DNA from: a virus
Lineage: Duplodnaviria; Heunggongvirae; Uroviricota; Caudoviricetes
DNA: 30,679 bases
IMG/VR virus record: IMGVR_UViG_2802429237_000002
Location: 1-30,679 of that record
Reading direction: 5' to 3' (one strand)
Notes under the pieces: generated by a model
What the model was told of the DNA's origin: nothing
Databases searched by the model: none
What the model saw: only the letters and a program-made list of their open reading frames with translations
Shown here: one piece after another, positions 2,298 through 4,388 of the stretch
How positions within the stretch are numbered: the stretch's first letter is position 1
Layout: every line of letters begins with the position of its first letter
Position numbers and translations under genes: made by a program

Positions 2298-2591
2298 TCA
2301 GTCATTACTGATAGCACCATAGCGTGAGCGGTAATTACGCAGGCGCGGGTCAATTTCAGGGAAGTGGGTATATGTGGCTTTGCGGAATGGTCGGATTGAT
2401 GTCTGGTAAATTCGCTCGCGTTCTTCTTTCTCTGCAAGCCATATACAATGGCGAAATTCCTTTTCCTCTTTCGTTTCCTGCGGTAGCGACATTATCAGGT
2501 CGTAGTTTTTTCTGAATTTATCCAGCACCTCCAATACGGAATTGCCGGAACAGCGGCGCGCGTCGTCCGCACCATATAGAGGCGCTGGCAT
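2298..2591 (-). CDS. Hypothetical protein (97 aa)
   Basis: ATG at 2591 preceded by AGGAG RBS; follows the exonuclease gene on the same strand. Confidence 0.5.
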
Positions 2592-2607: not shown

Positions 2608-3156
2608 TTATTTAGCTAACTTTTTCCAGATCGCTGAAACGTATTTGGCTTGGTGAATGGCATCATCAAGCGCGTTGTGGCGAGTTCCTTTGAATGGCAT
2701 ATCTCGCTTAGGGTCGAATCCTATTACCTTCCCAAGTTCGACGATTGTTCTTACGTCGCGGTCATTCCACCACTGCCACGGAACTGGCTGCCCTGTCAGC
2801 GAATAACTGTTGCGGAGAATAACGCAGTCAAATGATGCTCCATTCCCCCAAACCTGAACGAGTTTGTGGTTGGCGTTCTTTATGATGAATTCAGATAACC
2901 ATGAAAGAGCCGTTGAAAGCTCTTGAGTGTTGCTGGTTAGCGATTTTCTGGCTTCTTCACTCTGTTCCATCCACCATAAAATCGTTGAAGCGTCAGGACG
3001 TGCCCGATATCGCATTGATGACTCAAGCGAGATATTTACCGAGAACTCTTCTCCTGTTTCTCCGGTATTCGGGTCAAAGAATACCGCCCCAATAGAAATA
3101 ACTGGCGCGTATGGCCCGTTGCCCATTGTTTCAAGGTCAACCATTAAGTGATTCAT
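2608..3156 (-). CDS. DEDDh (DnaQ-like) 3'-5' exonuclease
   Basis: Exo I motif VDLETMG near the N-terminus and H-x4-D motif (HNALDDA) near the C-terminus; AAGGA RBS; part of the recombination module. Confidence 0.8.
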   Translation of the reverse strand: MNHLMVDLETMGNGPYAPVISIGAVFFDPNTGETGEEFSVNISLESSMRYRARPDASTILWWMEQSEEARKSLTSNTQELSTALSWLSEFIIKNANHKLVQVWGNGASFDCVILRNSYSLTGQPVPWQWWNDRDVRTIVELGKVIGFDPKRDMPFKGTRHNALDDAIHQAKYVSAIWKKLAK

Positions 3157-3164
3157 GTAAGTCC

Positions 3165-3680
3165 TTAAATTGCGTGAATAGCGTGACGAGGGAAGGGGAG
3201 AGTTACTGGTGCAAAGGGGATATCGTCGTCAAAATCCATAGGTGGTTCGCTGTGATTCCCTTGCTGCTGAGGTTGCTGTCTTTGTTGCTGACCGTTATTT
3301 CGCTGAGGTGAAGACTGTTCATTGCCTCCTTGCTTGCCACCAAGCATTTGCATGGTTCCACCAACGCCCACGATGACTTCGGTAGTGAACCGATCCTGTC
3401 CGCTTTGATCCTGCCATTTTCTTGTCCGCAATTTGCCTTCAAGATAAACCTCAGAGCCTTTTCGCAGATATTCGCTGGCAATTTCTGCCAGTTTCCCGCT
3501 CATTACCACACGGTGCCACTCCGTCTGCTCCTTTTGCTCTCCAGTTTGCTTATCACGCCATTGTTCTGACGTAGCAACGGTAAGGTTTGCAAATGCCGTT
3601 CCTGATGGTGAATATCTGATTTCTGGATCATGCCCAAGGCGACCAATAATGATCACCTTATTTACGCCTCTGCTTGCCAT
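3165..3680 (-). CDS. ssb: Single-stranded DNA-binding protein (SSB) with a C-terminal extension beyond the acidic tip
   Basis: OB-fold N-terminus ([21 protein letters not shown]...), Gly/Gln-rich linker and acidic [10 protein letters not shown] motif, followed by 15 extra residues ([15 protein letters not shown]) before the stop. Confidence 0.9.
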
Positions 3681-4388
3681 TTATGCCGCCTGTTTTAGTT
3701 CGTTAACTCTGATGTTCATTACCTGAACGCATTTAGCCTGCGCCTCCTCGTTGCCAGCCATTAATTGCCAGTCACGCTGATAACGCTCGATGAGTTTTTT
3801 CTTGTCAGTTTCTGTTGACGCATAATCGCTGAAGTCTTTCAGGATTTGTTCGCAGTCAACCGATGGAGATTTCTGGTTGGTATTTTCTGGTGATGGTTTG
3901 TTATCTGATGCTGGGATTGCCCATCCCGGCAGCGATGGAGGGAGCCAGTAAAATCCTGTTCCATCCTTCAGTTTTGCCCTGTGCCACCCCTGCTTTTTAT
4001 CGAGAGATGTTTGTGCGAAACCTTCCTCAAGGTTATACAGATACCGACCGATTCCCCACTGAACGGCAGCACGCTTCATTGCACCGGAACGACCACCTTT
4101 GACGGCTTCTACCTGCGTGTTTTCAGCAGCATCCCATTTGGTTACCCATTCGGAATCAATCTTGATTGATATGCCGCATTCAACTCCGCCGTTGTTGGGA
4201 ATATCGCGGTATTCATTGCGCCATCCTGCTTTGCCGCAAACATCGTCCAGGCGTTTCATGATTGCCCTGTTCGTGACATAAGCCAGCACCATAGCCCACA
4301 CTTTTCCATCGCGTGTTTTACCGCTTTGCTGTATTCGCCATTCGATATCTTCAGGGCTGAATGGCTCATCGAATTTATTCAAATCCAT
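3681..4388 (-). CDS. Rad52/Rad22-family single-strand annealing protein (SSAP)
   Basis: Blocks VLAYVTNRAIMKRLDDVCGKAGWRNEYRDI and GGRSGAMKRAAVQWGIGRYLY resemble Rad52 N-terminal-domain motifs; GAGGTGA RBS; sits between the ssb and kil/cIII-like genes. Confidence 0.7.
   Translation of the reverse strand: MDLNKFDEPFSPEDIEWRIQQSGKTRDGKVWAMVLAYVTNRAIMKRLDDVCGKAGWRNEYRDIPNNGGVECGISIKIDSEWVTKWDAAENTQVEAVKGGRSGAMKRAAVQWGIGRYLYNLEEGFAQTSLDKKQGWHRAKLKDGTGFYWLPPSLPGWAIPASDNKPSPENTNQKSPSVDCEQILKDFSDYASTETDKKKLIERYQRDWQLMAGNEEAQAKCVQVMNIRVNELKQAA

Follow-up and report, generated by a model that had tools for sequence, protein, structure and literature searches.

SSB, the bacterial single-stranded DNA-binding protein, is a homotetramer on single-stranded DNA that recruits its partners via an acidic tip, and this tip, ...DDDIPF, is normally the end of the protein. 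The phage sequence analyzed here (IMG/VR record IMGVR_UViG_2802429237_000002, 30,679 nucleotides, all of which we refer to as the window) contains an SSB gene whose reading frame continues for 15 codons past this tip. The locus raises the question of whether these codons result from a sequencing error or a recently lost stop codon, both of which had been considered in a first-pass annotation, or whether they encode a selected part of the protein, and what a buried tip would then mean for the recruitment of SSB partners.

The SSB gene and its recombination module

The features on which the analysis is based all lie on the minus strand of the window.

3681..4388, minus: gene for a Rad52/Rad22-type single-strand annealing protein of 235 amino acids, directly upstream of the SSB gene (PF04098, E value of 5e-26)
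3165..3680, minus: SSB gene, 171 amino acids plus stop, of the SSB-1 type of lambdoid recombination modules (PF00436, TIGR00621)
3213..3245, minus: acidic tip, residues 146-156 by translation, internal here; the NCBIfam models stop at its end
3212..3213, minus: junction between the Phe and Ala codons, identified by comparison with relatives, in which an endonuclease gene occupies it; empty in the window
3168..3212, minus: post-tip tail of 15 codons, residues 157-171 by translation
3165..3167, minus: TAA stop of the extended SSB and right-hand edge of the conserved tail block; conservation stops exactly there
3162..3166, minus: putative RBS-like AAGGA for the exonuclease gene, read from the sequence
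2608..3156, minus: gene for a DnaQ-like 3'-5' exonuclease of 182 amino acids (PF16473, Rv2179c-like, E value of 5.5e-73)
2298..2591, minus: gene for the anti-RecBCD protein Abc2, 97 amino acids (PF11043, E value of 6e-63)

The gene order of annealing protein, SSB, exonuclease, and Abc2 is that of a lambdoid recombination module, and the annealing protein is 99% identical to Sf6 gp28. The SSB gene belongs to the early-left operon; in an identical prophage of Escherichia coli W13-16, cIII and kil are found upstream, with xis and int on the downstream side. PF00436, the OB fold of SSB, matched residues 6-105 with an E value of 2.1e-38 (Pfam), the TIGR00621 score was 184.7 bits with a cut-off of 53.95 (NCBIfam), and PGAP applies the label ssb to the gene in the identical E. 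coli prophage. The OB fold is followed by a disordered Gly/Gln/Pro-rich linker and then by the acidic tip D-F-D-D-D-I-P-F. The protein departs from bacterial-type SSBs in that the Phe of the tip has no free alpha-carboxylate, being followed by 15 residues. The full-length SSB models of NCBIfam align end to end with residues 1-156 (for PRK09010, positions 1-177 of 177 correspond to residues 1-156); because they finish at residue 156, residues 157-171 lie beyond the normal end of the SSB family. Thus, both the translation and the family models confirm that the tip is internal, as the first-pass annotation had reported. That annotation had also stated that the extension overlaps the RBS and the start of the exonuclease gene; the RBS-like AAGGA does overlap the SSB stop codon, while the exonuclease ATG (3154-3156) lies 8 nt past that stop and is not overlapped.

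In a predicted structure of the SSB, residues 112-171 had pLDDT values below 50, and the tail was disordered with a pLDDT of ~30; this model is of low confidence as a whole and gives no guide to whether the tail docks back onto SSB. A run of 15 stop-free codons is not unlikely by chance (~(61/64)^15 = 0.5), and the significance of the tail therefore lies in its conservation. The 36-nt core of the tail occurs once in the window and was absent from 100 shuffled sequences.

Distribution of the tail and selection on it

Among the 120 closest protein clusters at 90% identity, whose sources are E. coli, Klebsiella, Citrobacter, Salmonella, and Enterobacter and whose identity to the window protein ranges from 75-98%, 116 carry a tail of exactly 15 residues, which answers the question, raised at first pass, of whether the extension is conserved in the SSBs of related prophages. 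The tail consensus over the 116 clusters is [AS]P[VIL]TLPFPRH[ATV][IVM][HY][AV][IL], with P158, L161, F163, R165, and H166 invariant, and the tip residues are at least 90% conserved across the same clusters. At the DNA level, a 51-nt tail query matched 404 of 5426 complete E. coli genomes, and the 36-nt core is present in at least 120 viral contigs. The junction of SSB, tail, and exonuclease gene (271 nt, 3060-3330) recurs with 100% identity in the complete chromosome of E. coli O139:H1 strain W13-16, where it belongs to a P22-like prophage adjoining ybhC. In 81 loci chosen regardless of the tail, we found a tailed SSB in 51, a canonical SSB followed by an endonuclease gene and the tail in 26, and no tail block in 4. 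A search of a genome collection with one genome per species using a degenerate tail pattern gave 10 loci.

The tail is a genuine, widespread extension of fixed length and neither an error nor a recent stop-codon loss. That it might be a sequencing or assembly error, or the loss of a stop codon in this genome alone, has a practically negligible probability given the identical junction in a complete chromosome, the 404 complete genomes, the viral contigs, and the occurrence in several genera and element types. A recent stop-codon loss is also at variance with the fixed length, with conservation across genera and types of mobile elements, and with the purifying selection described below.

Beyond this phage group, we considered the best 150 representatives at 50% identity from a library of 1.84 billion proteins. 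Among these, 77 SSBs end in PF, and 17 representatives match a loose pattern of an internal tip with extra residues, at least one of which is a fusion protein rather than a tip. Tails related to that of the window were found in the following elements.

Vibrio phage V039C: SSB with the residues APVGLQYGRNLLHVI after IPF, a homologous 15-residue tail
Cronobacter phage JK004, 94 kb: SSB with a homologous 15-residue tail
Enterobacter phage-plasmid, 88 kb: residues ATIGLQYGKHRIYAL after IPF, a homologous 15-residue tail
E. coli IncN-type plasmid: homologous 15-residue SSB tail; the neighbors are RepA and an antirestriction gene
Pantoea IncFII plasmid: SSB with a tail variant of 16 residues

We compared 119 clusters of Vibrio phage SSB relatives: 49 have tails of 8-16 residues and 20 end with one extra residue, ...IPFN. 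The IPFN clusters (P0368, P0372, P0375, P0396, and 16 others) include Vibrio phage 44E38.1, and their ending is the natural counterpart of the defective laboratory mutant SSB+Gly discussed below. Common to the enterobacterial and the Vibrio tails is the pattern AP[VI]xLx[FYH], followed by about four variable residues and the C-terminus [ILM]H[ACV][IL]. In both groups, the final two positions hold small or aliphatic residues without exception, the ends being AI, VI, AL, or CI. The tail is independent of downstream genes: its stop codon is followed by a terminator-like hairpin in phage JK004 as well as in the Enterobacter and IncN-type plasmids. A 20-kb plasmid of E. coli MDR_56, which has an IncN replicon, encodes a tailed SSB (locus L255, 1501-2031) with a TrfB-related gene on one side and, on the other, genes encoding a metalloprotease of the SprT family and an antirestriction protein; thus, SSBs with the tail, which we refer to as capped, are not confined to phages. 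In the phage-like 88-kb Enterobacter plasmid pJBIWA008_2, a gene annotated as a member of the Shedu immune nuclease family (locus L254, 2054-2671) directly adjoins the capped SSB gene on the opposite strand. On this evidence, the tailed class is carried by temperate phages, phage-plasmids, and some conjugative-type plasmids.

Selection was analyzed using 44 unique capped SSB genes from loci picked without regard to the tail and from deposited phages. The pooled pairwise pN/pS values, combine non-independent comparisons and for the tail cover only 15 codons; the tail had 0.074, the tip 0.043, the OB fold 0.158, and the linker 0.43. In a minimum spanning tree of tail haplotypes (n = 13), 22 changes were synonymous and 7 non-synonymous, compared with a neutral expectation of ~74% non-synonymous changes (binomial p = 3e-8). 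These data show purifying selection on the tail as a peptide. The tip in capped SSBs is conserved as strongly as anywhere, which disfavors the simple reading that a capped tip is a dead tip, as this would not predict such conservation.

Synonymous divergence was lower in the tail (0.18) than in the rest of the SSB gene (~0.5), indicating that mosaic sharing or some constraint at the DNA level adds to the conservation of the tail. A 48-nt block is near-invariant within the E. coli and Salmonella phages while the adjacent SSB codons vary, and the low synonymous divergence probably reflects the mosaic sharing of this block among these phages. The invariance of the block and its low pS, together with mosaic joints on both of its sides and the fact that it forms the 3' end of two different ORFs, would also fit a tail that has no function as a protein and results from read-through into conserved DNA, be it a mosaic boundary, a spacer for translational coupling, or the scar of an endonuclease gene. 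We regard this as quite improbable: diverged copies show many synonymous and few non-synonymous changes; the tail is kept where a terminator or an opposite-strand gene comes next, and it is present in Vibrio phages and plasmids in which no endonuclease gene follows SSB; and at the tail we found no promoter-like or terminator-like site, no Rfam match, and no unusual RNA fold (z = -0.5). That the tail exists to couple translation, or to provide an RBS for the following gene, is excluded, because the conserved block stops at the SSB TAA whether the exonuclease gene or abc2 comes next and because a terminator follows in several elements. An antisense ORF of 66 amino acids (3111-3311, plus strand) spans the tail and the tip; it is unsupported as a gene, since the pattern of substitutions in relatives is that expected from the SSB codon positions.

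An endonuclease gene at the Phe/Ala junction

In the phages Sf6, CurroJimenez_Bas106, Huey, IME10, and N7, SSB stops at ...DD(S)DIPF or ...DDEIPF. The next ORF in these phages, of 155-159 amino acids, is annotated as an endonuclease, and its C-terminus consists of ...PDE[EA] followed by 14 tail residues. At the DNA level, 444 nt are inserted in frame between the Phe codon TTT and the Ala codon GCA, such that the HNH-like endonuclease gene provides the stop codon of SSB while its own frame runs into the tail codons. Thus, the SSBs of Sf6 and CurroJimenez end at IPF because an endonuclease gene was inserted at the Phe/Ala junction, and the tail codons persist downstream. The first-pass annotation had envisaged that related phages might all end at DIPF; this holds for some of them and not for all.

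The empty junction in the window reads ...GATATCCCCTTT up to the Phe/Ala boundary and GCACCAGTAACT... after it. Outside the 444-nt insertion, CurroJimenez_Bas106 matches the window at 98.5% identity across 98% of the query. As expected of an empty homing-endonuclease site, the locus has occupied and unoccupied alleles that differ at a single exact position within near-identical flanks. Homologues of the endonuclease elsewhere lack the tail and end near ...KPIY with unrelated short ends. The PHROG profile of the endonuclease finishes at residue 143 of gp26, the confidence of the endonuclease structure model (pLDDT 94) falls across the last 14 residues, and some occupied alleles have kept the Ala codon (PDEA-PVTL). 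For these reasons, we consider the endonuclease gene to be the later arrival, and the close relatives that end in ...IPF are derived forms. The converse origin, in which the tail began as the endonuclease's own C-terminus and became fused to SSB by a deletion, is excluded by the tailless homologues and the earlier end of the profile and the model; moreover, the tail is far commoner and more diverse on SSBs, including lineages without a following endonuclease gene.

Two endonuclease lineages, ~52% identical to each other, occupy the identical site, and the tail variants attached to endonucleases (AIYAI, PITL..AIHAL, TIHAI) match variants attached to SSBs. In occupied alleles, ~11 differences are concentrated in the 33 nt at the end of SSB, left of the junction, compared with ~1% divergence in the remainder of the gene. 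The two lineages, the matching tail variants, the clustered differences, and the deletion fusions described next fit a mobile gene, and the last two are indirect signs that the nuclease may cut the empty allele and the gene be copied in by repair. In the databases, in-frame deletion fusions were found as SSB::endonuclease and endonuclease::exonuclease proteins (P0131, P0134, P0144, P0173, P0180, P0183), which seem to have arisen by decay of the inserted gene; the annotation of some is "single-stranded DNA-binding protein" or "3'-5' exonuclease." In Klebsiella phage phiKp_30 (locus L009, 1991-2196), unannotated DNA between the SSB and exonuclease genes contains a remnant of the endonuclease gene: its first codons, together with a copy of the tail block at 89.8% identity. 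A second, unrelated endonuclease gene (HNH_3 plus helix-turn-helix, 155 amino acids; PF13392, E value of 1.1e-13) was found in some relatives, in locus L027 (6341-6808) and also in L035, L036, L056, L060, L103, L115, L120, and L201. Because this gene sits between the genes for the annealing protein and SSB, the recombination module has at least two endonuclease-occupied sites.

We also compared the tail with the neighboring genes of the module. The tailed SSB occurs together with annealing proteins of the Rad52/22, AAA_24 (Sak4-like), and ERF types, and the tail is present with or without the exonuclease gene. Genes for Abc2 or Abc2-like proteins lie downstream of both capped and uncapped SSBs, and plasmids and large phages that lack the recombination module also have the tail. 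Co-variation of the tail with a phage partner was therefore rejected for the annealing protein, the exonuclease, and Abc2. Because the tail tracks no neighboring phage gene, the likelier partner is a protein conserved in the host, or else SSB itself. The tail is also not essential to the recombination module, since endonuclease-bearing phages such as Sf6 pair an uncapped SSB with a 99%-identical annealing protein. At the Abc2 position, Klebsiella-type relatives encode a protein of 94-99 amino acids without a Pfam match (L193, 3031-3315; L200, 3583-3876; L229, 11934-12233). It shares with Abc2 only the C-terminal R.YR.R.GAISN (BLASTP E value of 5e-05 over 16 residues) and may be a very diverged anti-RecBCD protein.

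Proposed role of the tail and comparison with known systems

According to published abstracts, at least 17 genome-maintenance proteins dock at the free C-terminal ...DDDIPF of SSB. With DnaG, the carboxylate of the terminal Phe makes a salt bridge to R452, and the tip is being explored as a drug target (PMC5872125). Adding one C-terminal Gly to E. coli SSB led to no detectable binding of chi and to poor complementation in vivo (Naue et al. 2011, PMC3045619). By capping the tip, the tail would remove the free alpha-carboxylate of the terminal Phe that canonical partner pockets use; because docking needs this carboxylate in the published work, usual-mode docking by SSB-interacting proteins of the host is expected, by extrapolation from E. 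coli SSB, to be most likely weakened or blocked. By analogy with SSB+Gly, the first-pass suggestion that a buried tip could alter partner recruitment fits the published biochemistry. As the tip is still under very strong selection, tip and tail most likely work together, either as an extended docking peptide with changed specificity or in the form of a cap that is displaced or removed; either arrangement would re-target or gate the SSB hub.

We consider it probable, if some way from certain, that the tail is an old, selected, disordered linear motif that defines a large class of SSBs on gamma-proteobacterial mobile elements, and that it alters docking, with tip and tail acting jointly. The more detailed proposal is that of a distinct capped-tip class in which the internal tip and a second motif re-wire or gate the hub toward a new, host-conserved partner, such that the protein would no longer recruit the repair and replication enzymes of the host or would do so only on demand, while the endonuclease gene switches the protein between its capped and uncapped forms; this we put forward tentatively, seeing almost as much chance for it as against it.

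Alternatively, the tail might be a removable cap or a degradation signal, in which case a host protease would trim the protein to DDDIPF, or recognition of the non-polar C-terminus would control the level or timing of SSB. The internal tip is still strongly conserved, the final two positions (...HAI, ...HVI, ...HAL, ...HCI) invariably hold small or aliphatic residues, the tail is predicted to be disordered and would be accessible, and its non-polar C-terminus may be compared with C-terminal signals of the ssrA-like or ClpX type, which AAA+ proteases recognize. We nevertheless rate this as unlikely: there is no known cleavage motif at Phe/Ala, and a C-terminal signal alone leaves the conserved N-terminal half AP[VI]xLx[FY] unexplained. 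In another scenario, the main effect of the tail would be a new interaction rather than the loss of the tip, the tail being a second docking motif for one specific partner, e.g., a hexapeptide similar to those that bind the beta-clamp. Such a hydrophobic-x-L-x-aromatic pattern is conserved in both clades, and the lack of tracking with the annealing-protein type, exonuclease, or Abc2 points to a host-conserved partner. Short clamp-binding hexapeptides include QLSLPL and QFKLPL, and Hda has the motif QL[SP]LPL (PMC3836487). Clamp-binding motifs (QL[SD]LF or QL[SP]LPL) have Gln at position 1 and hydrophobic residues at positions 2, 4, and 5 or 6. PVTLPF is comparable to the Hda motif, with V, L, and F at the hydrophobic positions; however, the leading Gln is missing and replaced by Pro, and the motif's final position is frequently occupied by His in Vibrio tails. 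We consider this scenario unlikely as a separate explanation, and it largely overlaps with the joint action of tip and tail preferred here without excluding it.

A widespread, selected capped tip would mean that the SSB hub is tuned, and not simply copied, by phages and plasmids. The alleles with and without the endonuclease gene are near-isogenic natural pairs of capped and uncapped SSBs with a matching annealing protein. Compatibility between annealing protein and SSB limits the portability of recombineering between hosts, which gives the tail practical relevance. The class also matters for annotation, because capped SSBs are all labeled plainly as "single-stranded DNA-binding protein."

Compared with known systems, the window SSB shares the OB fold, the disordered linker, and the acidic tip with E. 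coli SSB. The only characterized SSB that we found with residues past the terminal Phe is SSB+Gly (PMC3045619), a defective laboratory mutant with a single Gly; in contrast, the window SSB has 15 conserved residues under purifying selection, and this is the common natural state in a whole class of mobile-element SSBs. The SSB of phage HK620 also belongs to a lambdoid module and recruits Sak4, an annealing protein, through its last six residues, NDYPPF (Hutinet et al. 2018, PMC5928155). That protein ends at its tip-like motif with a free Phe, whereas the tip in the window is capped and the capped class pairs with three families of annealing proteins. In matching passages, a 2025 survey of lambdoid modules describes HK620 SSB as not homologous to bacterial SSB and SSB-1 as experimentally unstudied, and those passages do not mention the tail (PMC12315714).

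A further close counterpart is Sf6, which has the same module as the window, with an SSB (gp27) whose body is ~97-99% identical and an annotated endonuclease (gp26) carrying 14 identical tail residues. The two differ in that Sf6 SSB stops at ...DDSDIPF with the tail on gp26, while the window represents the empty site. The annotation of Sf6 gene 26 notes 14 residues identical to "E. coli SSB"; thus, the shared peptide had been seen before. Within the searchable papers, which do not include the 2004 Sf6 genome paper, we found no interpretation of this shared peptide, no occurrence of the tail peptide strings, and no description of C-terminal extensions of phage SSBs. A capped-tip class of mobile-element SSBs, with an endonuclease gene that would switch lineages between capped and uncapped, is so far undescribed in those papers.

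Free-standing homing endonuclease genes of phages, e.g., seg and mob of T4, spread by "intronless homing." The endonuclease gene described here resembles them in its presence or absence at an exact site, the near-identical flanks, the clustered differences next to the site, and the decayed deletion derivatives. Unlike them, it is inserted inside an ORF, precisely between the canonical end of SSB and the tail, and its presence or absence would act as a switch between uncapped and capped SSB.
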